64,000 bases of DNA, from NCBI GenBank assembly GCA_963755715.1, contig CAVWLW010000068.1:53304-117303 (forward strand), given 5' to 3'. Positions 20,300 to 38,681 of the stretch are shown piece after piece. The notes beneath the pieces are model-generated. The model ran no database searches, was not told the origin of the DNA, and was given only the letters and a program-made list of their open reading frames with translations. A program made the translations under genes and the position numbers. Origin of the DNA: an uncultured delta proteobacterium. Its GTDB lineage: Bacteria > Desulfobacterota > Binatia > UBA9968. Position 1 is the stretch's first letter; every line of letters begins with the position of its first letter.

Positions 20300-22225
<1,926 letters not shown>

Positions 22226-22259
22226 TTAATGACTCCTAAAAACTTTTGTGACAAGTTAT

Positions 22260-22883
22260 TTAATCATCGCTCTGCCCGTTTTCAACCTTGCTTTCGTGGT
22301 TTTTTTTCTCTCGTGTTTTTACTGCTTTAGCCACGCTGACCAAGGCCGGCCGCAGCAGTCGATCGCGCAGCATATAGCCCTTGTGAAGCTCTTCCACCAC
22401 CGAGTTTGGTTCATGATCATCGGTTTCCACTTGGGTCATCGCCTCGTGTTTTGTTGGATCAAACGGTTGGCCTTGGGCCGAAATAGGCATGACCCCGTGT
22501 TTTGCCAAAACGTCGGTAAGACCCCGAAGCACCATCTCCACGCCTTCGACAAGCGGTTTGCCATTGCCACCGCCCGACGCATGGGCGATCGCGCGTTCGA
22601 GATTGTCGACCACCGGCAGGAGATCCTTCAGCAAACTTTCGTTGGCATAGCGAATCGCATCATCACGCTCACGCCCACTACGTTTTTTATAATTTTCCAG
22701 CTCCGCGGCTTGGCGTAACAAGCGTTCATAATAATTTTTTGCTTCCGTTTCCTTGGTTTCTAGCTGTTGTCGAAGAGATAGGAACTCCGCTTCTACTGAG
22801 TTCGAATCGATTTCTTGAGGTGAAGCCTCGTTGGATTGCTCCGCACCTGATTCGTCGGCGTCTTTTTTAAATTCCTCGCTCAT
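22260..22883 (-). CDS. grpE: Nucleotide exchange factor GrpE
   Basis: AELENYKKR, LLPVVDNLERA, FDPTKHEA, KGY..DRLLRPALV. Confidence 0.97.
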   Translation of the reverse strand: MSEEFKKDADESGAEQSNEASPQEIDSNSVEAEFLSLRQQLETKETEAKNYYERLLRQAAELENYKKRSGRERDDAIRYANESLLKDLLPVVDNLERAIAHASGGGNGKPLVEGVEMVLRGLTDVLAKHGVMPISAQGQPFDPTKHEAMTQVETDDHEPNSVVEELHKGYMLRDRLLRPALVSVAKAVKTREKKNHESKVENGQSDD

Positions 22884-22918
22884 CTATGGCAGTTCTCCCG
22901 CTCGGTTTAATCGTAAAA

Positions 22919-22947
22919 AAGCTAATCACGAAGACCATCACTGTCAA
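22919..22947 (-). promoter_or_regulatory. Putative sigma70 promoter of grpE-dnaK-dnaJ
   Basis: On the minus strand TTGACA-17 bp-TAGCTT. Confidence 0.55.
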
Positions 22948-23044
22948 GGCTTGCTATTCTAAATTCTCCTTTTATTTTAATTAGTTGTCTGGTTTAAAAA
23001 AAAATGTTACGGTGGCAAGAGTCAGTTCCGCAAATGATTCGCTT

Positions 23045-23819
23045 ATGCGACCGAGTCATGTCACCGCCGCAATTGTACTGCGTCATCGGCCTTTTGGGGA
23101 GTCTGATAAAATAATCTCATTTTTGACGGAGGACTTTGGCAAACTTACCGGCATTGCCAAAGGAGCAATGCGGTCGCGCAAGCGGTTCGTAAATTCTTTG
23201 GAACCGTTTGCCTTAGTGAACCTTCGCTTTCACGACCGTCCGCACAGTAGCTTGGCGTTTATTCTAGCAGCGGATACTGGTTACGAGTTTTAGCAAGCTG
23301 CTCAATAGCCTGGAACGAATTTCTTACGCCTCGTACTTGGTTGAAATTACCGATGGATTGGTCGGCGAACGGGAAGAAAATGGCGAGATTTATCGCCACC
23401 TAAGGGACGGACTGAGTTTTCTCGAACAAAATGAAACGTCGCTTCGATTTCTCACGGCCTTCGAGTTAAAACTTTTGCGCCTAGTCGGCTACCAGCCGTT
23501 TTTGGACAACTGCAAAGGATGTCGCAGTGTTCTCGACGAGGCCAGATCCCAATGGCATTTCAGTCCGATCGATGGCGGCATACTCTGCGAATCCTGTGCG
23601 CGTGCACGCAAGCAGATTCTGCCGCTTGGGGCGACGGCGGTAGAAGTGCTAACCGCATTACAGATGGAAACTGAACTCTCCCGCGTATCGCTGCCGCGGT
23701 CGGTCATACATGAAATTCGCGCGGCGCTGCTGGGTTTTATACAGTTTCAAATGGATCGAGAAATCAAATCGGCAGCTTTTTTATCCGCCTTTTCTGCCGC
23801 GGAATCCGACACGACTTAG
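23045..23819 (+). CDS. recO: DNA repair protein RecO (frameshift near 23290)
   Basis: FGESDKII..GIAKGA..SRKRF..LEPF, then FELKLL..GYQP and two CxxC motifs in the next frame. Confidence 0.9.
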
Positions 23820-23878
23820 ACTCGCCAACACAGCAAATCTACAGCAAAGTTAAATAACCTCGACGAGGACGCAAAATC

Positions 23879-26590
23879 ATGCCGAACAAGAAAAGGAATA
23901 TTTTCTTTTTTGGAAACGGGAAAGCCGAAGGCAATGCTAGTATGCGCGATCTGCTCGGCGGCAAAGGCGCAGGCTTGCATGAAATGACTCGGATTGGGAT
24001 CCCCGTCCCGCCGGGATTTACGATCAGTACCGCCGTATGCGGCTACTACGATTCGCACAGCCATCGTTATCCTAAAGGTATCGAGGGGCAAGTCGCACAA
24101 GCCCTCGCGCGGGTGGAAAAAATCCTCGATCGGCGTTTCGGCGCCGCCGACAACCCTTTGCTCGTCTCGGTTCGCTCGGGCGCGCGCGAATCCATGCCAG
24201 GGATGATGGACACGGTTTTGAATTTGGGTCTTAACGATCGAACCGTGCAAGGTTTGATTCAGCGAACCAAGAACCCGAGATTCGTATTCGACTCTTACCG
24301 GCGATTCATCCACATGTACGCTGATGTGGTTCTCGGCATCAAGGCGGCGAGTAAGACTAACGGCGATCCCCTCGCTGCGATCCTGGAGCGCAAAAAAAAC
24401 AGCCGCGGAGCGCGTTTTGACACGGATCTCGACGCCGCGGACTTACAAGACCTGGTTTGCGAGTATAAGGCCGAGATCAAGAAAACATTAGGGAAAGATT
24501 TTCCCGAAGATCCCATGGATCAATTGTGGCGTGCGATCGGCGCCGTATTTGGCTCGTGGAACAACGATCGCGCGATCGCTTATCGCGAGCTTTACCAAAT
24601 TTCCCACAATTGGGGCACGGCTGTGAACGTCCAAGCCATGGTCTTTGGTAATCTCGGCGATGATTGCGCGACCGGAGTCGCTTTCACACGCGACCCAGCC
24701 ACCGGCGATAAGCGGTTCTATGGCGAGTTTCTCGTGAATGCCCAGGGCGAGGACGTGGTCGCGGGCATTCGCACGCCTAGGCCCATTGCAGAACTTTGCC
24801 AAGCGATGCCCAAGGCGGCAAGTGAGCTGCAAAAGGTTTGCAAGCTCCTCGAAAAGCATTATCGAGAAATGCAGGACATCGAATTCACGATTGAAAAGGG
24901 CAAGCTCTGGATGCTGCAAACACGCGCCGCCAAGCGCACTGGGTTTGCCGCGGTGCGCATTGCCGTCGACATGGTCGAAGAACGCATCATCAGCAAAAAA
25001 GAAGCTTTGCTGCGCATCGAGCCGGATCAGCTCAACCAATTGCTGCGACCGGTTTTCGACCAGAAAGGCAAAGAAAAAGCTCATCTATTGGGCAAAGGTT
25101 TACCCGCGGGGCCTGGCGCGGCCACCGGCCGGGTGGTTTTTGATGCCGAGGACGCCGTCGAGTGGAAAAAGCGCGGCGAGCGAGTCGTGCTCTGTCGCAT
25201 TGAAACCAGTCCCGACGATATCCGCGGCATGGACGCGGCGCAGGGAATATTGACAGCCCGCGGTGGCATGACCTCCCACGCGGCATTGGTGGCGAGACAA
25301 ATGGGCAAAGTGTGCGTCGCGGGTTGTGAGGTTTTGCACGTCGACTATGCCGCTCGTACCTTGCGAGTCGATCAGACCGAGCTCAAAGAGGGTGAATGGA
25401 TTTCGATTGACGGTAGCACGGGCGAAGTTTTTCAAGGCGAAATCCAAACTTTGCCGTCGGAGGTTTTGCGAGTTGTGCTGACGCACTCGTTAGATCCAAA
25501 AGAGTCACTCATTTATCGACAGTTCGCCAAGCTCATGAATTGGGCGGACGAAGTGCGCACGCTTGGGGTGCGCACCAACGCCGATCAACCCGATCAAGCG
25601 GCGATCGGTAAAGCGTTCGGCAGCGAGGGCATCGGTCTTTGCCGCACCGAGCACATGTTTTTTCAGGGCGAGCGCATCCAGGCGGTGCGAGAAATGATCC
25701 TCGCCGATGACGAGGTCGGACGGCGGCGCGCGTTGGCAAAGCTCTTGCCGATGCAGAAACAAGATTTCAAGGGCATTCTTGAAATCATGGGAACCTTACC
25801 TGTAACCATTCGGACGCTCGACCCGCCATTGCACGAATTCTTGCCGAAGCATGACAGCGAGATCGTCGAGCTCGCTCAGGTCATGGGAGTCGCGGTCGAA
25901 GTGCTGCGCGATAAGGTGAACGTTTTGCACGAATTCAATCCGATGTTGGGTCATCGCGGCTGCCGCTTGGGGATTTCCTTCCCCGAAATAACCGAAATGC
26001 AAGCACAGGCGATTTTCGAAGCCGCTTGCGAGCTGCGGCGCGAAGGCAAGAACCCATTTCCCGAGGTCATGATCCCTCTGGTCGGCTCTCTACCTGAGCT
26101 GCACGAGCAAAAGGCCATCGTAGAGCGGATTGCGAACGCGACCCAGAAGTCTTACGGCGTCAAAGTGCGCTACCTAATCGGCACGATGATCGAGTTACCG
26201 AGGGCTTGCATGGTCGCTGACGAAATTGCCGAAGAAGCTGAGTTTTTCTCCTTCGGCACTAATGATCTTACACAGACCTGCCTGGGCTTATCGCGGGATG
26301 ATGCGGGAAAATTCTTGCCGAGCTACGTTTTACAGGGCATCTTGCCGGAAGATCCGTTCGTCACCATAGACCGAGACGGGGTCGGTGCACTTATGCGGAT
26401 CGCCATAGCAAAAGGCCGGAAAACCCGCAAAAAACTCGAAATCGGCATCTGCGGTGAACACGGCGGTGATCCGAAATCGGTAGCTTATTGCCACGACATC
26501 GGCCTCGATTACGTGAGTTGCTCACCGTACCGGGTTGCGATTGCTCGATTAGCTGCGGCGCAAGCCGCGTTACGAAAAAAATTTAATTAG
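23879..26590 (+). CDS. ppdK: Pyruvate, phosphate dikinase
   Basis: LGGKGA, SVRSGA..SMPGMMDT, GGMTSHAA phospho-His, FSFGTNDL, CGEHGG. Confidence 0.97.
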   Translation: MPNKKRNIFFFGNGKAEGNASMRDLLGGKGAGLHEMTRIGIPVPPGFTISTAVCGYYDSHSHRYPKGIEGQVAQALARVEKILDRRFGAADNPLLVSVRSGARESMPGMMDTVLNLGLNDRTVQGLIQRTKNPRFVFDSYRRFIHMYADVVLGIKAASKTNGDPLAAILERKKNSRGARFDTDLDAADLQDLVCEYKAEIKKTLGKDFPEDPMDQLWRAIGAVFGSWNNDRAIAYRELYQISHNWGTAVNVQAMVFGNLGDDCATGVAFTRDPATGDKRFYGEFLVNAQGEDVVAGIRTPRPIAELCQAMPKAASELQKVCKLLEKHYREMQDIEFTIEKGKLWMLQTRAAKRTGFAAVRIAVDMVEERIISKKEALLRIEPDQLNQLLRPVFDQKGKEKAHLLGKGLPAGPGAATGRVVFDAEDAVEWKKRGERVVLCRIETSPDDIRGMDAAQGILTARGGMTSHAALVARQMGKVCVAGCEVLHVDYAARTLRVDQTELKEGEWISIDGSTGEVFQGEIQTLPSEVLRVVLTHSLDPKESLIYRQFAKLMNWADEVRTLGVRTNADQPDQAAIGKAFGSEGIGLCRTEHMFFQGERIQAVREMILADDEVGRRRALAKLLPMQKQDFKGILEIMGTLPVTIRTLDPPLHEFLPKHDSEIVELAQVMGVAVEVLRDKVNVLHEFNPMLGHRGCRLGISFPEITEMQAQAIFEAACELRREGKNPFPEVMIPLVGSLPELHEQKAIVERIANATQKSYGVKVRYLIGTMIELPRACMVADEIAEEAEFFSFGTNDLTQTCLGLSRDDAGKFLPSYVLQGILPEDPFVTIDRDGVGALMRIAIAKGRKTRKKLEIGICGEHGGDPKSVAYCHDIGLDYVSCSPYRVAIARLAAAQAALRKKFN

Positions 26591-26711: not shown

Positions 26712-28439
26712 ATGGAACCACGTTTTGCGGAATTGTTGGTAAAGGGAGGCGTAGTAACCCGCGAGCAGCTCACGGAAGCGCAAAAAAAAGAAAGAGAGAA
26801 CGCTTCCAGTATCATTAAAGAAGTCGTTCGACTGGGGTATTCGAGCGAAGAAATCTTAAGCGCATTTCTCGCCAAACAATTTGGCATTGAAACCGCGGAA
26901 CTCGTTCCCGGCGAAATTGAAGACGCGGTATTTGCCTTAGTCCCGCCGCAGATAATTCAGAAGCATCAGTTGGTCCCTTATAAACTTTTCGGCTCGACTC
27001 TTACCGTCGCCATGTCCGACCCGACGGATCTGGTCGCGATCAACGAAGTCAAATTCGTGACCGGTTACGGTGTGCGCGTCGTGCTGGTGACCCCATCGAA
27101 TATCAAAAAGATGCTGGATCACCGCTTTGGCGGGGTGAGTTATGACGATGTGCTGAAAAAGTTCGGTGACGGCGAGATGGAGGTCGTCCAGGAGAGTGAC
27201 GATGTAAACCTCCAGGAGTTGCAACAAGCCACCATGGACGCGCCCGTGGTGACCCTGGTCAACGCAATTCTTGCCGATGCGGCAAAACGCCGCTGCAGCG
27301 ATATTCATATCGAGCCCTACGAAAAAATCTTTCGGGTTCGGTTTCGCATCGACGGCGTGCTGCAGGAAATCATGAGTCCGCCGCTGCGGCTGAAAAATGC
27401 TCTGGTGTCGCGCTTAAAAGTCATGGCTGGTTTGGATATCGCGGAGCGGCGGCTGACCCAAGACGGCCGCATCAAGCTCAAAATGGGCATGGGCGGTGAA
27501 TTGGACGTTCGTGTTTCCATCCTGCCCACCTTGTTCGGCGAGAAAGTCGTGATGCGCTTGTTGGATAAGTCCAATCTGCAACTCGACATGGCCAAGTTGG
27601 GTTTTGATCCGCAGAATTTGAAAGATTTCCACGAGGCGATTCATAAGCCTTATGGGATGATTCTGATTACGGGTCCGACCGGAAGCGGCAAGTCGACCAC
27701 GCTTTATTCCGCTCTATCGGATCTCAACAAGCCTGATGTAAACATTTCCACCGCTGAAGATCCGGTGGAATACAATTTGGTGGGAATTAATCAAGTTCAG
27801 GTTAGAGAACAAATAGGCCTCAATTTCGCTGCCTGTCTGCGTTCATTCCTTCGCCAAGACCCAGATATCATCATGGTTGGCGAAATTCGTGACCTCGAAA
27901 CGGCGCAGATCGCTATTAAAGCCGCTTTGACGGGCCATCTGGTCTTGAGCACGCTCCATACCAATGACTGCCCGGCGACTGTGGATCGCTTGATCAACAT
28001 GGGAACCGAACCGTTTCTTTTGACGTCGTCGATCAACATAATCCTAGCCCAACGGTTAGTGCGGAAAATATGCGATCAATGCAAAGAGCCAATTGAAATA
28101 AAACCGGAGGTTTTGATTAACCTCGGCATCGATGCTGCGGAGGTAGGCGCAGGTTTTCCAACTTTTCACGGTCGAGGCTGCAACAATTGCGGCGGTACGG
28201 GGTATCGGGGCCGATTAGCGGTGTATGAGGTCATGGTGATGCGTGAAGAGCTCAAAGAAATGATCTTGAAAGCAGCCTCAGCCATGGAACTTAAGCGTGA
28301 GGCCGTCAAACTCGGCATGAGCACGCTGCGCATGAGTGCATTGCAAAAGGTGCGCGAGGGCCTGACCACCGTCGACGAGACTATTCGGGTTACCGACAAC
28401 GATAAAGGTTTCGGTTCGGTTTTTTCGCTTGGATTCTAA
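26712..28439 (+). CDS. pilB: Type IV pilus assembly ATPase
   Basis: SDIHIEP, GPTGSGKSTTLY, EDPVEY, LRQDPD, TGHLVLSTLH, tetracysteine motif. Confidence 0.95.
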   Translation: MEPRFAELLVKGGVVTREQLTEAQKKERENASSIIKEVVRLGYSSEEILSAFLAKQFGIETAELVPGEIEDAVFALVPPQIIQKHQLVPYKLFGSTLTVAMSDPTDLVAINEVKFVTGYGVRVVLVTPSNIKKMLDHRFGGVSYDDVLKKFGDGEMEVVQESDDVNLQELQQATMDAPVVTLVNAILADAAKRRCSDIHIEPYEKIFRVRFRIDGVLQEIMSPPLRLKNALVSRLKVMAGLDIAERRLTQDGRIKLKMGMGGELDVRVSILPTLFGEKVVMRLLDKSNLQLDMAKLGFDPQNLKDFHEAIHKPYGMILITGPTGSGKSTTLYSALSDLNKPDVNISTAEDPVEYNLVGINQVQVREQIGLNFAACLRSFLRQDPDIIMVGEIRDLETAQIAIKAALTGHLVLSTLHTNDCPATVDRLINMGTEPFLLTSSINIILAQRLVRKICDQCKEPIEIKPEVLINLGIDAAEVGAGFPTFHGRGCNNCGGTGYRGRLAVYEVMVMREELKEMILKAASAMELKREAVKLGMSTLRMSALQKVREGLTTVDETIRVTDNDKGFGSVFSLGF

Positions 28440-28533: not shown

Positions 28534-29760
28534 ATGGCGACATTTGTTTGGGAAGGCCGAACGGCCCAAGGAAGGGTGGTTAAAGGTGACAATCTCGAGG
28601 CGCCGAGTTTGGAGGCCGCACTCGCCCGCCTCCGCGAGCAGCGCATTCGACCGATTGCCAACCGCGTTAAAGAAAAGGGCAAAGGATTCGACAAAGAGAT
28701 CTCGATACCCGGCTTTGGCGACAAGGTCACGACGAAGGATCTCTCCCTAGCTACCCGGCAATTGGCCACCATGATCGATGCCGGTTTGCCAATCGTGCAG
28801 TGCTTAGACATTTTGGCGGAACAATCGGAGAGCAAGCTTCTGCGCACTACGATAGGTACCATTAAAAAGGATGTTGAGGGAGGCTGCACGCTCGCGGACG
28901 CTCTAAGAAAGCACCCCAAGATCTTCGATGACCTTTACGTGAACATGGTCGAGGCCGGTGAAGCCGGCGGTATTTTGAACACGATCCTAAATCGGATTGC
29001 GTTGTTCATCGAAAAAGCCAACCGACTGAAGAAAAAAGTCAAAGGCGCCATGATCTATCCTTGCGCGATCGTCGGCGTCGCGGTGATCGTGGTCGCGGTC
29101 TTGATGATTTTCGTTATCCCCGTCTTTGCCGAGCTTTACGGCAGTATGGGAAAAGCTCTTCCAGCACCGACTCAGATTTGTATCAATATCAGCAACTGGT
29201 TCGTTGCCTACTGGTATGTGCTCGTGGCCGGCATAGCCGGCATCATTAGCGGCACTTCCTTTTACTACAAGACGCCGCACGGCCGCATGAAAATCGATGG
29301 GATCATGCTCCGGATGCCGATCATCGGCGATCTTTTGCGCAAAGTAGCCGTGGCGCGTTTTTCACAGAACATGGCGCTGCTGCTGAGTTCCGGCGTCCCG
29401 ATTCTCGATGGTCTGGCGATTACCGGCAGGACCGCAGGCAATAAAGTCGTTGAAAAAGCAATCATGGAGAGCCGCATAAGCATCAGCCAAGGTAAAACCG
29501 TTGCCGAACCACTGCGTGACAGCAAAATTTTTCCGCCTCTGGTCTGTCAGATGGTGGCGGTCGGCGAAAGTACCGGTGGGCTCGATACGATGCTCAAGAA
29601 AGTAGCCGAGCTTTATGAAGAAGAAGTCGACGACGCGGTCAACAACCTAACGGCAATGATGGAACCGATGATCATGATCGTTCTCGGTGTCGTGCTGGGC
29701 GGCCTAGTCATCGCCATGTATCTGCCGATATTCCAGATGGGTTCATTAGTCGGCGGATGA
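28534..29760 (+). CDS. pilC: Type IV pilus inner-membrane platform protein
   Basis: TRQLATMIDAG, GEAGG, MIYP, GESTG, MYLPIF (GspF family). Confidence 0.95.
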   Translation: MATFVWEGRTAQGRVVKGDNLEAPSLEAALARLREQRIRPIANRVKEKGKGFDKEISIPGFGDKVTTKDLSLATRQLATMIDAGLPIVQCLDILAEQSESKLLRTTIGTIKKDVEGGCTLADALRKHPKIFDDLYVNMVEAGEAGGILNTILNRIALFIEKANRLKKKVKGAMIYPCAIVGVAVIVVAVLMIFVIPVFAELYGSMGKALPAPTQICINISNWFVAYWYVLVAGIAGIISGTSFYYKTPHGRMKIDGIMLRMPIIGDLLRKVAVARFSQNMALLLSSGVPILDGLAITGRTAGNKVVEKAIMESRISISQGKTVAEPLRDSKIFPPLVCQMVAVGESTGGLDTMLKKVAELYEEEVDDAVNNLTAMMEPMIMIVLGVVLGGLVIAMYLPIFQMGSLVGG

Positions 29761-29813: not shown

Positions 29814-31856
29814 GTGAATGATGAAAACAAAAAATTGACGGAAAAGATCCGCTGGCTGCTGCTGCTGCGGGTAGTGATTCTATCTTTTTTTCTAGGCGCG
29901 ACGGCGCTGTTTCATTTCTTTGGAACAGAAGGAGACGTGGCCTATCTGATCAGTCTCTCCATCCCGCTGGTCCTCGCCTACGTCATATCGATTATTTCCG
30001 TCGCTGTCTTGCCCAAAGTAGGCAGCTTGCGCCTATTCGCCCACGCACAAGTCTGCTTCGACGTCATTCTGATCACCGGCATCATCTGGATCACCGGAGA
30101 CATCGCCAGCCCGTTCTCGGTTCTTTATAACCTCGCCGTCATGAACGGCGCGATTTTGCTTTTTTATCGCGGTGCGTTTTTTACCGCGGCGTGCTCAAGC
30201 CTGTCCTATTCGGGATTGCTCCTCTGGTCGCGCTTTCTCAATTCGGGCCAGGGAACGCCGCTTACGTGGTCGACCCTCATCCCGATCGTGCTGAGCATCA
30301 GCAGTTTCTTCGTGATCGCATGGCTCAGCGGCTTTCTGGCCAATAAACTGAGCGAGACCGAACAACTGCTAAAAGAAAAGCAAATCGACTACCAAGAGTT
30401 GGATGCGTTCAAGGACGCGCTGTTACAAGGAATCGGTAGCGGCGTGGCAATCACCGATCCCGATGGACGAATCAACTATTTCAATCAGCAGGCGCAAGCG
30501 CTGACCATGCTCGATGAAGCGAACCTAAAGGGCAAGCGGCTCGATCAAGTCTTCCCGGGTTTGAGCTATGACTTTCAACGCAATCGCAGCGCCGGTGCGC
30601 TCGTGACGGATGAATTGGCTCTTGCCAATTCCTCGACTCAGGGTGCAGCCAAACAGATTCGCCTGACGCTTGCGCCGCTCAATAATTTGAACGGCCAACC
30701 GATTGGCTTTCTTTCGATCTTCGAAGACATCACTCGACAAAAACAAATAGAAGAAAAAGTACGGCTAGAGGAAGAACTGCGCAGGGGAAGGGAAGTTGAA
30801 TTGAACCAGACCTCACCTGCGAGGGATAACCCCGAGTTTCACTTTGAAGGCGTGATCGGTAAAAGCGGTGGAATCGAAAAAATCTATCACCTGATCCAGA
30901 AGGTTGCGGCCAGCAGCACAAATATTCTGATCTCCGGTGAGAGTGGCACCGGCAAAGAGTTGGTGGCGCGCGCGATCCATCTAAACGGGCCGCGCCACGG
31001 CAAACCGTTCATCGCCGTCAATTGTGGCGCGATTCCGGAGAACCTTATTGAAAGCGAGCTCTTCGGACATGTGCGTGGCGCTTTTACCGGCGCCGTATCG
31101 GATCACACCGGACTCTTCAAGCAGGCCGACCAGGGAACGATTTTTTTAGATGAGGTCGGTGAGTTGCCGCTCCACCTTCAAGTCAAGCTGTTGCGAGTTC
31201 TCCAGGAAAAGAGTTTCACTCCCGTCGGCGGCAGCAAACCGATCAAGGTCGACGTGCGAGTGATTTCGGCCACTAACCGGGAATTGCGCAAGGAACTCGA
31301 AGAAGGACGATTTCGCGAAGATTTGTTTTATCGCCTGAACGTCGTCCAGATGGTCATGCCGCCACTGCGCACCAGAAAGGAAGATATCTCCGCTCTCGCA
31401 CACTACTTCTTGCGGAAGTTTGCCGCCTCTCATGACAAAAAGGTCGAAGAAATTTCTAGCGGCGCCCTGATGCAACTGATGAATCACACCTACCCGGGAA
31501 ACGTACGGGAGCTCGAAAATATCATTGAGCATGCTGTTGCGGTGACCAATAAGAATATTCTGGCGGAAGAGGATTTGCCGCAACATATTAAGAGCCTGCC
31601 GCTTGGCGAAGAAGTGGATCTATTCGAGAAAACCGCGCCCGGTGGCGCGGACCTATTTTTTAGCAAAGGCTTGTCGTTAGACGTGGAGCTCGAAACCCAT
31701 GAAAAGTGTATTTTGCTAGGGGCGCTGAAGCGCGCCAACGGCGTGCAGAAAAGGGCCGCTGAGATCCTTGGTATTAACTATCGATCGCTCCGTCATCGTC
31801 TGGAAAAATACGATCTACTCAATTCTAAAAGCGATTCCCCCAGCGACCAGCAGTAA
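29814..31856 (+). CDS. PilS-sensor/PilR-output fusion: multi-TM domain + PAS + sigma54 AAA+ + HTH
   Basis: N-terminus with about 5-6 TMs (QVCFDVILITGIIWITG..SPFSVLY, PilS-like), PAS (GVAITDPDGRINYFN..FEDIT), GESGTGKE, ESELFGH, GAFTGA, FLDEVGE, C-terminal AAEILGINYRSLRHRL. No H-box, HATPase or receiver domain. Confidence 0.85.
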   Translation: MNDENKKLTEKIRWLLLLRVVILSFFLGATALFHFFGTEGDVAYLISLSIPLVLAYVISIISVAVLPKVGSLRLFAHAQVCFDVILITGIIWITGDIASPFSVLYNLAVMNGAILLFYRGAFFTAACSSLSYSGLLLWSRFLNSGQGTPLTWSTLIPIVLSISSFFVIAWLSGFLANKLSETEQLLKEKQIDYQELDAFKDALLQGIGSGVAITDPDGRINYFNQQAQALTMLDEANLKGKRLDQVFPGLSYDFQRNRSAGALVTDELALANSSTQGAAKQIRLTLAPLNNLNGQPIGFLSIFEDITRQKQIEEKVRLEEELRRGREVELNQTSPARDNPEFHFEGVIGKSGGIEKIYHLIQKVAASSTNILISGESGTGKELVARAIHLNGPRHGKPFIAVNCGAIPENLIESELFGHVRGAFTGAVSDHTGLFKQADQGTIFLDEVGELPLHLQVKLLRVLQEKSFTPVGGSKPIKVDVRVISATNRELRKELEEGRFREDLFYRLNVVQMVMPPLRTRKEDISALAHYFLRKFAASHDKKVEEISSGALMQLMNHTYPGNVRELENIIEHAVAVTNKNILAEEDLPQHIKSLPLGEEVDLFEKTAPGGADLFFSKGLSLDVELETHEKCILLGALKRANGVQKRAAEILGINYRSLRHRLEKYDLLNSKSDSPSDQQ

Positions 31857-32052
31857 CAAAATTTGTCACTTGGCTCGCTGGCAAAATTCCGTAATACCAA
31901 AGTTTAAATTTTGCGTGGTGTTTGCCAGGCGCCACAAGATCGAGCTGATATAGGGAGCAACTTGCTAAAAGATAAAGGCTTTGGTCATGGCTAGGAGATT
32001 TATCGATGTGCCGATTGTGGCCGTTATATGACAGGAGTAGGCGAATTTATTC

Positions 32053-32068
32053 TGGCCCTGCTTTTGCT
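32053..32068 (+). promoter_or_regulatory. sigma54 (-24/-12) promoter of pilA
   Basis: TGGCCCTGCTTTTGCT with correct GG-N10-GC spacing, about 170 bp upstream of pilA. Confidence 0.7.
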
Positions 32069-32241
32069 CGCTAGGCGTTGCAACGTTTCAGTCGAAAATA
32101 CGACATCGACACCCAAAGGAGGTGACGCATCATAAGCATGCAGATCAGAAGAGCATTGGACATCGAACGCAGGTAGTTAGTTTAGAAGAAGTCACTAATA
32201 GAGATTACAAACAACCTAATAATAGAAGGGAGTATTGGTAG

Positions 32242-32640
32242 ATGAATAGACTAAGATTACAGAACGAATCGGGGTTCACCCTGATTGAGTTGTTGGTTGT
32301 CGTTGCCATCATTGGTATCTTGGCGGCCATCGCGATTCCTCAGTTTGCGGCATATAGAAAGCGTGGTCATGAGGCGCAGGTCAAGTCTGACTTGAGAAAT
32401 GCAGCGGTGGCCGAGGAAGCGTATTTTGCAGCTCAATCTGCGTACAAATCATCTTCTTCTGCATGGACCGGTGGTGCATCGCCGACCGTCCCGGGTTTCA
32501 ACGCCACCACTGGAGTAGCTGTATTTTCGGTGGCTGGAACCAACACGTTTTTGCTGACAGCGACGCACGCGAACTGCGGTACCAATGTCTGGACTTTCAG
32601 TAGCGGTAACGGCACGATTAGTGGTAGCGCTTGTCCATAA
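32242..32640 (+). CDS. pilA: Type IVa major pilin
   Basis: Prepilin cleavage G|FTLIELLVVVAIIGILAAIAIPQF with E5, C-terminal Cys pair, own terminator. Confidence 0.93.
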   Translation: MNRLRLQNESGFTLIELLVVVAIIGILAAIAIPQFAAYRKRGHEAQVKSDLRNAAVAEEAYFAAQSAYKSSSSAWTGGASPTVPGFNATTGVAVFSVAGTNTFLLTATHANCGTNVWTFSSGNGTISGSACP

Positions 32641-32677
32641 GCGGCAAATACATCGGGTAACCCGATTATCGGGATTC

Positions 32678-32711
32678 AAAAAAGGGGGCCACGCTAGGCC
32701 CCTTTTTTTTC
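32678..32711 (+). terminator. Rho-independent terminator of pilA
   Basis: AAAAAAGGGGGCC-ACGCTA-GGCCCCTTTTTTTTT. Confidence 0.88.
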
Positions 32712-32768
32712 AGCTTTAAAAAATCATACGACGAGGTCAATTCCCACCAATTTTATAGGTCACAAGAC

Positions 32769-35414
32769 GTGCTCGAGAGTCGTAAATCCGTTAGAGAAGA
32801 ATTTCTTGCCATCGCAGCCCTATCGGCAATGGTGATCTGGTTTTGCGACGAGATGATTTTCTCGCAAAAAATCCCATTCTTTCGCGACCTGGTCACATAT
32901 TTTTATCCGATTAAATTCAGCGTTGCGGAAGCCTTCAAAGCTGGCTCACTACCTATGTGGGACCAGCATATGGCAACGGGTTTTCCAATCATGGCCGAGT
33001 TTCAATCAGCGGTGTTTTATCCGCCCAGCATCGCCTTTTATCTCCTACCGTTTTTTACGGCCGTACGGTTTATCTTCGTTTTTCATTACGCCATTGCCGC
33101 GATCGGTTCCTACATTCTGTTCCGATCATGGAAATCACCAGTATATGTTGCTCTTATTGGAGCCGTCCTGTTTGCCTTTGGCGGCACGATGGTTTCGCTG
33201 ACAAATTTATTAAATCATTTTCAAAGCGCGGTTTGGTTACCCTGGATTATCTATTTCTGGGAAAGCGCGGTTAGAGACAAGCGAGCAAGAAATGTTGCCA
33301 TTTTCACGATTATTGCGCTTTGCCAATTACTCGCGGGATCGCCCGAGATATTCTTGCTTTCCATTGGATTGGCACTGCTTGATGCCATTCGGCTCCATCG
33401 CGAAGATCAAAGCCACGGCTTGTTTCGGGCAACGATTGTACTATTGGGGTCGGGATTCGTGATTATGGGGCTCGGCATGGTTCAACTGTTGCCGACCGCT
33501 GAGCTTGTAATGCAATCCCGTCGCGACCAACCGATCCCGGTCGCCGAAGCGCTCGCGTGGTCTTTACAGCCGTCAAGCTTGATCGGGCTTTTGTTACCCA
33601 CCCTCGAAGCTGACTCGTCCCTATCGGTCGGTGTTCGGTTGTTACTTACGGACGGAGTGCCTTTTCTCCTTAGCCACTATATCGGCGTCATCGGAATTTT
33701 GGGCTTGTGTTGTTGGTTCAAGGCTGCACGAACAAAAGAGCGCGTTATCATAACGGGACTAATCGGGCTCTCGTTGGTACTGGCGTTCGGAAGCTATACA
33801 CCGATCTACGCGTCTCTCTACGACGCGATACCTGTACTACGTGTCATGCGTTTTCCCGAAAAATATTTCTATTTAACCTTTGCAATCTTGGTATTCACGA
33901 TCGTTCGCGGATTATCTCAGACGACGGACGCGAAAAATTCTCGGATGTGCTGGGTCTTTGCGTCCTCAATGCTTGTCCTATGGCTCGTTGTTTATGTAAT
34001 TTTTCGATCACAACCAGAGTTACTCGCAAAATTTCTTTATTCTCTGAACACTCACCGACGTGCGGGCGAAGTCACCCCTGCGACAGTAGCGGCCATCCTG
34101 GTGGTCCTAGAAAAACAAATTGCCGTCTCTTTGGTTTTGTCATTGCTATTTTGCCTAAACCGTTACGGAATTTTGCGCGTAACATTGTTTCAACCTTTGC
34201 TCGTTTTATCGGTGTTTCTCGATCTGAGCTCTGCTAATAAACCGCTGCATTTTCTGCGGGACGAAAAGCTTGTCCAAAACGTAGCGCGAGTTATGGAAAA
34301 ACCGCCCGTCGATCACGGCCGCTTTTTCTATTACCCACCGTCAAATAATCTACACCCTAGTTTCATGAGAGTAAGCGGCAATCTGACTTACGATAAGGCA
34401 ACAGAGATTGCGCTAAATAATTTACTGCCCAATGCCGGCATGTTGTACGGTTTTGAATATTTTCAAGATATAGACGCGCTTGGCCGCCGCAGCTACACCG
34501 ATTTTCTGAATTTCATCAATTCTCTGCCAACCGACCGACGGGGCAAACTGCTGCGCGCCGTAAACGTGAAACATGTCGTGGCGTTTCATTCATTGGAAGT
34601 GAAAGGTCTGGAGCTTGTCGGAGAATTTCCCGAACATTACTCCAAGCTATACGAGGTCACCGATGCGGTGCCGCGAGCTTATGTTGCGGCGCGCGCGATC
34701 TATGATCTGGACCCGAAGAGCACTTTGGAGCGGATGTCCAGCGACAGCTTCGATCCGCTGCGAGACGTGGTACTCGACGTGCCGATTCATTTGGAGACGA
34801 AAGGTATTTTTCATGGTGAAGCGGCGATCAAACTTTACGAAAACAATCGCGTGCAGATTAACGCCCAGCTTAGCGAACCCGGTGTCCTCGTGTTAACCGA
34901 TGCATTTCATCCGGGATGGAAGGTTTTTGTCGATGGTAAAGAACAAACAATTCGACGCGCCAACTATCTGTTTCGCGCCGTAGAATTGCCAGCCGGGAAT
35001 CACCGAGTGGAGTTCGTCTACGATCCCATTTCATTCAAACTCGGCTTGGTTATCTCATCGCTGACTGCGGCTTTATTCATCACAATACCCCTGGTTGGTT
35101 GGCTTCGCCGGCGGGCCGCTTTTACACAATCTCGCAGTGCATTTTCGCCATCGCCAGTGTCGCTCAATTGCGGATCGTTCGGGCTAGCTATGGCTCGGCT
35201 GTTTAGGAACTATTTTCTAATGTGGTCAGGCTTAGCCGCCGCTTTGAACTCAAAAACGGAAACCAAAGGGACACCCGCAAGATCGATCGCTAGAAATGGC
35301 TTAGTTGGCGAGCTGATTAGACGCCTTTCCCTTGGTGCCAAGCACACTTCGGCGATGGAGTATAATGTAATAATTAAAGCTTTGGCCGTCGGTGAGTTTG
35401 ATATCGGGCCGTAA
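32769..35414 (+). CDS. YfhO-family (GT-C fold) membrane protein; true 3' end probably near 35200
   Basis: FRDLVTYFYP, P.WD..MATGFP, FYPP, WLP, LLPTAEL..SRR, PGWKVFVDG, RANYLFRAV..G.H.VEFVY; many TMs. Confidence 0.8.
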   Translation: MLESRKSVREEFLAIAALSAMVIWFCDEMIFSQKIPFFRDLVTYFYPIKFSVAEAFKAGSLPMWDQHMATGFPIMAEFQSAVFYPPSIAFYLLPFFTAVRFIFVFHYAIAAIGSYILFRSWKSPVYVALIGAVLFAFGGTMVSLTNLLNHFQSAVWLPWIIYFWESAVRDKRARNVAIFTIIALCQLLAGSPEIFLLSIGLALLDAIRLHREDQSHGLFRATIVLLGSGFVIMGLGMVQLLPTAELVMQSRRDQPIPVAEALAWSLQPSSLIGLLLPTLEADSSLSVGVRLLLTDGVPFLLSHYIGVIGILGLCCWFKAARTKERVIITGLIGLSLVLAFGSYTPIYASLYDAIPVLRVMRFPEKYFYLTFAILVFTIVRGLSQTTDAKNSRMCWVFASSMLVLWLVVYVIFRSQPELLAKFLYSLNTHRRAGEVTPATVAAILVVLEKQIAVSLVLSLLFCLNRYGILRVTLFQPLLVLSVFLDLSSANKPLHFLRDEKLVQNVARVMEKPPVDHGRFFYYPPSNNLHPSFMRVSGNLTYDKATEIALNNLLPNAGMLYGFEYFQDIDALGRRSYTDFLNFINSLPTDRRGKLLRAVNVKHVVAFHSLEVKGLELVGEFPEHYSKLYEVTDAVPRAYVAARAIYDLDPKSTLERMSSDSFDPLRDVVLDVPIHLETKGIFHGEAAIKLYENNRVQINAQLSEPGVLVLTDAFHPGWKVFVDGKEQTIRRANYLFRAVELPAGNHRVEFVYDPISFKLGLVISSLTAALFITIPLVGWLRRRAAFTQSRSAFSPSPVSLNCGSFGLAMARLFRNYFLMWSGLAAALNSKTETKGTPARSIARNGLVGELIRRLSLGAKHTSAMEYNVIIKALAVGEFDIGP

Positions 35415-36859
35415 ACGTCCTTCTTTTTGATAAATGCTGAACATGAAATTGGCTACCGATGCATTCACGCTTGCGTTCATTGGTAGTTTGTCATTGAGCG
35501 CGCGCAAGAAGTTGGGCGTGATGGCTTCCATAAAGTAAGTCGTCTCCAGTCCACGCTCATACGCACCACGGATACCGCCAACAAACCGGTTATAAAAACT
35601 AAGTTGAAACGGGTGACACAGGTAGACATCCAACACAGGACTGAAGCAAGCCAGTAGAACGAAGATACCGGCAACTTTTGTCTTCAGTCTGGTAATTTGC
35701 ATCGGCACATGCCGGTTTCGGAAAAAACTCATCGACCAAGCTGAGCATAGTGTGAAAACCCACTCCTGCCAAAGCTGCAATGAAAGGTAGCACTGAGAGC
35801 ATCTGCCGGACGCCATCGTGAAGGACGGCACCGGGCATAAGGCCCAAACCCAGGATGAAAGTTGCATGGAAAAAAAATAGGAGGGCGACGGACCAATGCT
35901 CTTTTCTCAAAGTAATTGAGAGGGTGCCTAACAAGGCCAGCGCGATGAACGGTTCGGGTGTGGTGACGCCGATCATGAAAAACGAGTAGTACCAAGGCAG
36001 CTGATGCGTAAAATAAAGTTGGTTGAAAAAATAGATCATGAAGTTTGCGTCTGGCCGATACGCACGGCTGATACCTTCATACAAAAACTCCAAAATTCGC
36101 AAACCGGTTTGATGCCAAAGGTAGGGTTGCGTGCCGATCATGACAATCGGTGCAATAAAGAGCAGCGCAAAGACATTGTTCACATACTTGTCCCGGTGAA
36201 ACAGATGCGCCCACAGAATCAGAGGAACCGGAATGAGCACCGCAGGAAATTTGGTGGCGAGCGCCAAGCCCCATAGGACACCGAGCACGACACTCCACTT
36301 CCAGTTGCTGAGACCTTTCCAAAAGGCAAAGACTGTCAGGAACCACATTGAAGCCAGCGGTAGATCGGTGACCGCGAAATGCGCGTAGCCAAACAGGTTG
36401 GGCGTCAGGATGACGCTCAAGGCCGAAAACAAACCTGTAGCCCTGCCGAAAAGCTCCTTCATCCAAAGAAACATCACCGTAACGAGCAGGGCGAAAAAAA
36501 GCGCCGGCCCGATGCGATACGCTGAAAACTTGTCTACAGATTGTGGCGAGATATCCTTAGCAAATCCCGAAATAATCCGCGAAAACGGCGGATGGGGTAC
36601 GTTGTACGGATTCCAATGCCAAGCGGCCTGGATGGTTTGATCGTCGAGGCTCTTTCGATAACTCGCCGTAGGTCAGGTTATCCACGAAACCGCGGATCCA
36701 CCGCACATGGAGATCGGATGCGTGAAAATAGGGGGGCTCGTCCCACGTTACTCCATAATCTTTTGCTGTCGCACCAATGAGCAGCAGAGTTCCGAAGAAC
36801 AAAACAAACGGTATCAGCCAACGTGTTGTTCGAGATTCGAGGGATATCGTTTCATTCAT
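35210..36859 (-). CDS. GT-C glycosyltransferase (GT39/ArnT-like), several frameshifts
   Basis: YGVTWDEP, PHPPF, HFAVTDLP, GLALATK, HDGVRQ, YNRFVGG..GA..GLETTY, in successive frames. Confidence 0.75.
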
Positions 36860-36972
36860 GGGAAGAGATTCTAAGTTTTTAGTAGGTTGGATTACTTCAC
36901 GGTGCTGTTTTTTAGCGCCGTACCAAAACCGCCTCGCGAGCATCTCGTCGAAAAAACCGTACCAACTTTTCA

Positions 36973-37690
36973 TTATCGCTTACGCCAAACGGCTAGAACT
37001 GACTTGCCGATCGTGCCGCGAAACAATCGATCGACAATACGCGATGCCGGCACACAGATCGTATCCCATATTCTAATTTGCGGTTCGGTTGGCATGGATT
37101 GGCGAAGTCCAAGAACATTGCCGAGGGATAGAAACACTCCCGAGTGAGTCAAGATAAGCAAGCTTCACTTCGAGCCATCCGGCGGGCATCATCGATCTGA
37201 GATGAGCTTTGTTGTAACGACGAAAGTGACCGATGCTTTTGTCAAATTCACTGAAGAGCCAATGATGAGCTGGAGACAGGATGACGACATGACCGCCGCT
37301 ACGAACGAGCCGTGCGGCGGCATCGATCTGCGCGCGATCATCTTGGATATGTTCCAGGACATCGATATACAATATGCAATCGAAAGATGGACGATCAGAA
37401 AATGTTCGAAGGGATCCGACAATCACATTCGTTGCCGACCGGCCCCCGCACGAAGTGAGTCGAGCCTTTAGACGCAGTGCTAAGCGCTCGTCCGGTTCGA
37501 GGCATACCCAGCGACGCGCCGTACCATCGTGAAGCACTACGGTGGTGGCGCCGATGCCCGCACCCACTTCCAACACATCGCCGGTAACGTAACGGGAAAT
37601 TTCGCGCTTAATGTAGCCTTTCCAATTCTTGGCTAAAGCAAACAGATCGAGTTCGCCGCCAATATACGAGATTTCATGCGTGTCAGCCAT
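36973..37690 (-). CDS. Class I SAM-dependent methyltransferase (frameshift near 37140)
   Basis: VLEVGAGIG, DVLEHI, FD..IGHFRRY, C-terminal GKSVLAV in the adjacent frame. Confidence 0.8.
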
Positions 37691-38681
37691 AAATCCGGTG
37701 GCGAGCACCTATAACGTGAACATAATCGTGGGTCGGGAGCACGTTGGTGGCATTGCGTGCGGCGAGGATCACAAAGACAAAAACCAGAATCACCAAAAGC
37801 ATCTGGGTCAGCATCACAAGCAAAAGGCCTGTGACATACGTAGCCCATCCGGGGATAGCGAGATCGGTTACCAAGCGGACGGTGATGACACTCGCTAGCG
37901 CGGTCACCGTCACACCCATTCCAACGGACACTACAATGAGAAGTCGGACACCAATGCGGTCGCCAAAAACCGCCATAGCGCTCAACCCATGTACTACCAG
38001 GGAGACCATATCCATGCGTGTTGGCCCCTCTAATCTCGTGCCGCGCTCCGACGGGATGAACTCCATAGGAAGTTTCGCCTTATGCACAGCGGCAGCGTAA
38101 TGGTTCCACAACTCGGATACGGCCACCAATCGTTTCAGAACGTCGGGGGGGACGATACTGAAATTGCCGACACGAACTCGAACCCCCGTCAATAGAAAGT
38201 GGATAATGCGGTACAGGTGGTAAAAGAACGTGAATAGCCAACCCTCAGATCGCTTGGTCCGAGCGGCGAACACAATTTTTTCTCCTCGATTGGCAACACA
38301 CTTGCGCACAAGCCGGGAAACGTCTTTGGGGTCATCCTCGCCATCCGAGTCCATGACAACAACCAAACACTGTGGTTGATTTGCTTCGATGTACGAAAGG
38401 CCGACCGCAATCGCTCGTTGATGGCCTAGATTGCGTCGAAGTGAGAGAACTTCAATAATCTCAATGGATTCGAATCGTGCTGGCGCCAAATTTTCCGGCA
38501 CTGCCTCCGTCGATCCGTCATCGACGAGGATAATACTAGCTGTAAGCCCATTCTCTTTGAGCTCACGATCTAAGATGGGTAGAAGCAGCGAAAGCGCCCG
38601 CCAATCGTTATACACCGGCATCAAGATGATCAAATTGTCGTCGTGCGTCTCTGAAGGGCTCATGACTATGGCGAGGTGCAA
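37683..38681 (-). CDS. GT2 polyprenol-phosphate glycosyltransferase (GtrB/DPM-like)
   Basis: PVYND, VDDGS, RNLGHQRA, MDSDGED, two C-terminal TMs. Confidence 0.88.
   Translation of the reverse strand: MHLAIVMSPSETHDDNLIILMPVYNDWRALSLLLPILDRELKENGLTASIILVDDGSTEAVPENLAPARFESIEIIEVLSLRRNLGHQRAIAVGLSYIEANQPQCLVVVMDSDGEDDPKDVSRLVRKCVANRGEKIVFAARTKRSEGWLFTFFYHLYRIIHFLLTGVRVRVGNFSIVPPDVLKRLVAVSELWNHYAAAVHKAKLPMEFIPSERGTRLEGPTRMDMVSLVVHGLSAMAVFGDRIGVRLLIVVSVGMGVTVTALASVITVRLVTDLAIPGWATYVTGLLLVMLTQMLLVILVFVFVILAARNATNVLPTHDYVHVIGARHRIYG

Follow-up and report, generated by a model that had tools for sequence, protein, structure and literature searches.

A membrane-anchored PilS-PilR fusion predicted to act on sigma54 in the pilus locus of the uncultured class Binatia

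Introduction

What controls the pilin gene of a bacterium in which one gene occupies the slot of the two-component pair PilS-PilR? This question is raised by the window, the whole stretch of 64,000 nucleotides analysed here, from an uncultured member of the class Binatia. In Pseudomonas aeruginosa, PilS has six transmembrane (TM) segments, contacts the pilin PilA and exerts feedback via its phosphatase function, as described in PMC6058289 and PMC11960060. We analysed the architecture, ancestry, distribution and probable target of the Binatia gene.

Architecture of the fusion protein

The gene had been described in a first-pass annotation as one uninterrupted 680-aa reading frame between pilC and pilA, and the frame indeed runs without an internal stop between pilC and the type IV pilin gene (Table 1). 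A Pfam scan of the translation identified a 6TM_PilS domain (E 6e-19), followed by PAS, Sigma54_activat (aa 347-513), AAA lid (aa 519-594) and HTH_8 domains. HisKA, HATPase_c and Response_reg, which the annotation had reported as absent, were not found among 16 families at E<=0.1, and the same three families were all detected in the control PilS and PilR of an outgroup locus. The motifs named beforehand (FEDIT, GESGTGKE, GAFTGA and FLDEVGE) are all present in the translation, and the AAA+ part carries Walker A, GAFTGA, Walker B, the arginine finger and sensor II. The "charged linker" of the annotation needs revision: the charged stretch exists, but most of it belongs to the PilS helix that runs towards the phospho-His box. 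The junction sits just after this helix, within a short linker, and the phospho-His box itself is missing.

Table 1. Positions of the pilus genes, fusion domains and candidate regulatory sites in the window
Feature	Position	Strand	Remark
pilB, assembly ATPase with MshEN domain	26712..28439	+	
pilC, upstream neighbour of the fusion gene	28534..29760	+	
Fusion gene, 680 aa, 6TM-PAS-AAA+-HTH	29814..31856	+	GTG start
PilS-type six-TM domain, aa 3-185	29820..30368	+	Pfam
PAS domain, aa 200-310	30411..30743	+	Pfam
PilS-derived post-PAS helix, aa 307-332, plus short low-confidence linker, aa 334-338	30732..30836	+	
PilR-derived sigma54 AAA+ domain and lid, aa 347-594	30852..31595	+	
Fis-type HTH, aa 626-666	31689..31811	+	recognition region PilR-like
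Palindromic candidate activator site	31853..31869	.	16/17 to consensus; overlaps stop codon
Sigma54 -24/-12 promoter of pilA, GG-N10-GC	32052..32068	+	sequence match
pilA, major type IVa pilin gene, likely target	32242..32640	+	mature pilin from 32275, Glu5 kept
Terminator-like GC hairpin between A and T runs, 3' of pilA	32685..32702	.	

An AlphaFold2 model built from 85 sequences (mean pLDDT 89) has a pTM of 0.58, so that the placement of the domains relative to one another is unsure. In the model, the N-terminal domain is all-helical, with six hydropathy peaks in the fusion alignment; one continuous helix (aa 152-206) leads from the last TM segment into the PAS domain, and a further helix follows the PAS domain before the low-confidence linker. 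For the AAA+ part of the model, matches to NtrC4, NtrX and FleQ were obtained, with a Z of about 31 and an rmsd of 1.4-1.7 across 242-252 residues. Fold searches with the whole model returned AAA+ matches only, and a profile of the TM domain found no sequence match in the PDB at E<=1. No second PilS-type TM domain was found elsewhere in the host genome.

The predicted protein thus shares the six-TM domain and PAS domain of PilS sensor kinases and lacks their HisKA phospho-His box and HATPase_c; its AAA+ and HTH parts descend from PilR, and the N-terminal receiver domain of PilR is absent. A TM region and a DNA-binding domain are predicted in one polypeptide, as in transmembrane transcription regulators, and the AAA+ motifs, GAFTGA loop and HTH, together with a candidate upstream site and a -24/-12 promoter, are those of a sigma54 enhancer-binding protein. 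By architecture, the fusion belongs to the sigma54 activators and to the membrane-bound regulators, and is neither PilS nor PilR proper.

Integrity of the junction

A collapsed assembly, or a one-off deletion in a lineage whose relatives keep separate pilS and pilR, could be held responsible for this layout, the more so as the host assembly is frameshifted in at least one other place, the rpoN gene. Against this, contigs from two independent soil studies span the junction without gaps: contig X3 covers 30105-31087 with 9 differences and contig X5 covers 30637-32193 with 6 differences, in a comparison that used 4 of the 24 listed sequencing runs. A homologue search with aa 1-345 of the fusion matched 648 proteins; among the 120 listed, every one carries 6TM_PilS, PAS and Sigma54_activat, none contains a kinase or receiver family, and the HTH is missing from two shorter proteins. 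Separate pilS and pilR genes are therefore not the rule in relatives, and the same layout extends over 12 families of the class. We reject assembly collapse on these grounds, and the probability left to an artefact or a one-off event is negligible.

Ancestry of the two halves

In a quick tree of the AAA+/HTH region, from which two fragments and the fusion gene's own duplicate were excluded, 33 fusions and 27 PilRs defined by their locus grouped together, apart from 29 other activators encoded in the host genome (SH-aLRT 98). The 30 Binatia fusions in this tree fell on a single branch (99). They did so again in the tree of the TM-PAS region, in which the three fusions from outside the class fell among PilS kinases.

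Comparison of the fusions with PilS kinases located the missing segment. In the PilS sequences that match the pattern (36 of 37), the phospho-His comes 29 residues after the Asp that ends the PAS domain, and the His-box pattern was found in 0 of 88 fusions. In the fusion, similarity to PilS stops about ten residues ahead of the phospho-His position, and similarity to PilR picks up directly ahead of the AAA+ domain; the deletion therefore took out the receiver along with the kinase's His box and ATP domain. By sequence comparison, pilS and pilR were joined in this gene by a deletion, with both ancestries and the loss of the relay evident.

The junctions are not the same in all fusions. That of genome G026 retains a PilR-like helix, and in P0125 and its relative P0272, which are closest to canonical PilS, the junction lies right after the PAS domain. 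The best 150 representatives matched by the TM profile comprised 108 kinases, 7 proteins with AAA+, 30 short proteins and 5 others. One sequence, P0220, carries behind its PilS-type TM domain a stretch that we take to resemble a Lon protease domain; being a single sequence, it may be a chimera.

A single origin of the fusions was not rejected with the initial sets of rows (AU p 0.15 and 0.17). With a realigned set that had gained two fusions and lost three long-branch rows, it was rejected under LG+G4 (AU p 0.003) and was borderline under a mixture model (AU p 0.055). None of the bootstrap trees of two careful analyses placed all two-protein rows on one side. These results suggest that the fusion probably arose more than once.

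Distribution in the class Binatia and beyond

The TM domain was matched in 135 of 351 sampled Binatia genomes. Complete fusions were present at 26 of 29 loci of the window's family, the other three being cut (two) or frameshifted (one). Of the 95 TM-matching genomes outside that family, 60 were examined: the TM and AAA+ domains share one frame at 58 of the 60 loci (two of these with later frameshifts and one cut by a contig end), frameshifts interrupt the remaining two, and at none of the 60 is the TM domain attached to a kinase. Outside the class, a canonical TM-kinase PilS was found in 61 of 64 distinct genomes and a fusion in three (G020, G026 and G036), in a set that is not random because long open frames were deliberately picked. 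For G026, the comparison set held no other genome of its class.

The fusion is not universal within Binatia. The pilus gene pilM was found in 202 of the 351 genomes, and some families have no TM match, among them f99 (pilM in 25 of 26 genomes) and f5 (17 of 23). Inspection of five pilM-positive genomes without a TM match gave two without fusion, promoter or palindrome, two with the promoter only and one with a fusion of two TM helices. In the near-complete genomes G325 and G320, which have no fusion gene, pilA also has neither promoter nor palindrome. Two f5 genomes keep a sigma54 site upstream of pilA though no fusion was found; at these loci (L211 and L212) pilA comes immediately after pilC, neither a palindrome nor a clear PilR orthologue was found, and another activator may have taken over. 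The short form, found in G316 (L213) and G332 (L230), consists of about two hydrophobic helices followed by PAS, AAA+ and HTH; it lies between pilC and pilA in G316. At seven f107 loci and at L164, the fusion is followed by neither a pilin gene nor a strong sigma54 site within 4.5-6 kb downstream, and at three f3 loci a sigma54 site is retained behind the fusion and the pilin motif is absent. Taken across the sampled genomes, the comparisons indicate that the fusion is real, ancient and conserved across this uncultured class.

The pilA promoter and its upstream site

A promoter near 32053 had been proposed, and a -24/-12 site is present there, ahead of the likely target gene pilA. Glu5 is kept in 59 of 59 pilins. 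On an ad hoc scale of our own, a GG-N10-GC site scoring >=8 precedes pilA at 64 of 73 loci, five loci with long gaps having been dropped; shuffled sequences gave a mean of 0.5 and a maximum of 2.

The candidate activator site is a 17-bp palindrome located 201 nt upstream of the -24 GG. Matches of >=13/17 were found at 27 of 61 fused loci (0.3 in dinucleotide shuffles) and at 7 of 8 two-protein loci (0.08), against a consensus read by eye from the same loci as were scored and with four loci excluded as duplicates, as frameshifted or for want of a clear promoter. The other 34 fused loci score <13/17, and beyond the window's own family a half site is often all that is left of the palindrome. In the window it is the sole 16/17 match of the 7.4 Mb genome, and of the 17 genome sites at >=14/17, only the window copy has a strong sigma54 site nearby. 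Helical phasing of palindrome and promoter was rejected (resultant length at most 0.27 over 30 positions).

RNA contigs extend over pilA in two runs and, in one run, over two short stretches of the fusion gene; such contigs yield neither a ranking of expression nor a start site. One of the pilA contigs begins upstream of the expected start site, at 32034, and therefore may reflect read-through or DNA. An Rfam search over 31800-32800 gave no match at E<=1. At 32116-32126, about 120 nt ahead of the pilA start, the window carries a strong Shine-Dalgarno-like word, and 27 of 62 leaders have a comparable word upstream. A short reading frame with a His/Asn/Cys-x-Pro-Pro motif, a pattern written post hoc, was found in 14 of 69 pilA leaders (0.26 in shuffles), namely those of L088, L090-L094, L099, L104, L106, L108, L116, L117, L120 and L130, and often terminates at a stop directly after the prolines. 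Such a frame is absent from the window's pilA leader; where present, it is a possible regulatory leader peptide.

Several neighbouring genes deserve mention. Between 26712 and 29760, pilT is missing between pilB and pilC, unlike in most other families of the class, and two pilT-like genes lie on contig C29 of the host genome. The region 5' of pilB (20300-26590) holds dnaK, grpE, recO and pyruvate phosphate dikinase, named by eye from their translations, with recO split over two frames (22985-23293 and 23337-23819). Behind pilA, at 32769-35414 and 35599-38681, lie a YfhO-type membrane glycosyltransferase gene and a piece of a PMT-type glycosyltransferase with opposite-strand neighbours; the YfhO-type gene also stands behind pilA in many relatives of the family. 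These glycosyltransferase genes are candidates for a role in pilin glycosylation.

Conservation of the motor

The motor of the fusion is well preserved across the 88 fusions aligned. The Walker A pattern and sensor II are each found in 86, the Walker B Asp-Glu in every fusion except one truncated row, and the sigma54-contact loop reads GAFTGA in 82, GSFTGA in 5 and otherwise in 1; most motif misses belong to frameshifted or cut loci. Among six close relatives, pN is 0.04-0.27 versus a pS of 0.56-1.0 in all five regions, synonymous sites being saturated. The rpoN gene was found in 48 of 48 genomes of the window's family. In the host assembly it is split by a frameshift (L203/L204, G000:C34:25713-27141), likely an assembly indel, and one further genome of the 48 looks split.

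A PilS-PilR fusion as such is already known from Neisseria gonorrhoeae. By the description in PMC10269533 and PMC6528607, Rsp is a remnant in one species that joins the membrane part of PilS at its N terminus to a DNA-binding domain from PilR at its C terminus (Nps-Npa); it is repressing according to the former and has no role according to the latter, and pilE uses RpoD. The Binatia protein resembles Rsp in these parts and could, in the same manner, be a remnant or a repressor that binds upstream of pilA without activating it. Unlike Rsp as described, however, it keeps its full motor, with the ATPase and sigma54-contact motifs conserved class-wide, rpoN is retained, and the promoter of pilA is of the activator-requiring type. 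The sequence gives no sign of the loss of sigma54 activation that marks an Rsp-type remnant, and we regard a remnant or repressor as very improbable.

Conservation of the sensor

In the membrane part, none of the 88 fusions departs from R19, D83 or Y105, and R19, Q79 and D83 are invariant in 37 PilS sequences. The spacing from TM6 to the PAS domain (F165-G218) is 53 residues in 88/88 fusions and 37/37 PilS, and the D83-Y132 spacing is 49 in all of them. An arginine in TM1 of P. aeruginosa PilS presumably pairs with Glu5 of pilin.

The TM region might nevertheless serve as an anchor or for localisation in a pilin-blind activator, whose output would be set by protein level, proteolysis or proximity to the pilus machine. 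This view is favoured by the survival of the two-TM form in G316 and G332 and by the PAS-to-AAA+ linker, which is acidic, often contains proline and ranges in length between 31 and 48 residues (one frameshifted row has 22); a title cited in PMC6058289 also ties the PilS TM region to polar targeting. A mere anchor, however, would need neither six helices nor invariant polar residues of the buried type, nor fixed spacings shared with PilS, and the TM1 arginine is kept even in the two-TM form. A pilin-blind activator thus appears unlikely to us.

Alternatively, the PAS domain could read a small molecule or redox signal, as in ordinary one-component sigma54 activators, with the TM region playing a minor part. 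The PAS domain is retained even in the two-TM form, R283 is fixed in the Binatia fusions at a place where PilS has Gly, and, according to PMC4641369, the one-component activators of Desulfovibrio use PAS more often than any other sensor. Yet the domain was inherited from PilS, it is less conserved than the TM core, and no ligand motif was found in its sequence. We consider this input decidedly improbable.

Proposed mechanism

The earlier proposal of a phosphorylation-independent PilS-PilR fusion with an intact sigma54 motor is backed by the domains, the tree, the motifs, the promoter and the palindrome. Its further points, that contact of pilin with the TM domain controls AAA+ oligomerisation and that the promoter is tethered to the membrane, are conjectures drawn from P. 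aeruginosa PilS and from conservation. Phospho-His, kinase ATP domain and receiver are all absent, and the fusion is accordingly without the kinase and phosphatase arms of PilS signalling. On balance, we favour the view that the fusion, seated in the inner membrane, activates the pilA promoter, and that it probably responds to how much pilin the membrane contains.

The activator step is the part of which we are most confident: the HTH very probably binds the palindrome at 31853-31869, and looping of the DNA would bring the AAA+ ring to the sigma54 promoter at 32052, which it would open. That pilin is the input, acting through the TM bundle with negative feedback, is a reading towards which we lean by analogy with PilS. 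Unassembled pilin would touch the TM bundle and impose on the PAS domain and the helices behind it a dimer geometry in which the ATPase domains are kept from forming a ring; once pilin is withdrawn into pili, the restraint would ease and pilA would be transcribed. Gating of the ring through dimer geometry is speculative and drawn from general knowledge of sigma54 activators. As the PAS-to-AAA+ linker varies in length, control would seem to work through geometry or docking and not through a rigid helix running into the ATPase. More tentatively, kinase sensor and regulator may have merged repeatedly into a membrane AAA+ activator in which pilin, without any phosphorylation, gates ring assembly and its own transcription; this switch would be fixed in most of Binatia and would have evolved independently in at least one further lineage.

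Comparison with known systems and implications

The fusion shares with the PilS-PilR system, as found in P. aeruginosa and in deltaproteobacterial pilC-pilS-pilR-pilA loci, the six-TM PilS domain, the PAS domain, the PilR-type AAA+/HTH, the genomic slot, the promoter type and the palindrome; it differs in being one polypeptide, with its ATPase tied to the membrane. Its best NCBIfam matches, all below cut-off, are one-component sigma54 activators of the PrdR, NifA and DmpR type, in which a sensor is likewise joined to AAA+ and HTH without phosphotransfer. In contrast to these, it carries a polytopic membrane domain derived from a kinase; the one-component sigma54 activators surveyed in PMC6615313 are mostly without TM regions. 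Membrane-anchored one-component DNA-binding regulators of the ToxR, CadC and ChiS type resemble it in layout, but it is predicted to work on sigma54 through an AAA+ ring.

In the membrane-regulator census of PMC10269533, "Sigma54" has no match in the protein table, which may reflect the census selection, and "Binat" and "Sigma54_activat" have none in nine text supplements; "fused" and "fusion" are absent from the text of PMC6060248. A literature search drawing mostly on sources outside subscription journals returned no description of the Binatia fusion in the portions it reached.

The fusion would represent a natural experiment in which a two-component system has turned into a one-component system with its input and output retained. 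PilS sensing is reduced here to a TM-PAS-helix unit with a direct readout, and the sensing of membrane pilin can therefore be tested with one gene and a reporter. It raises the question of how a sensor of the dimer type gates a ring ATPase, and how a ring at the membrane reaches DNA; the two-TM form and the differing junctions hint at the minimal parts such a regulator may need.
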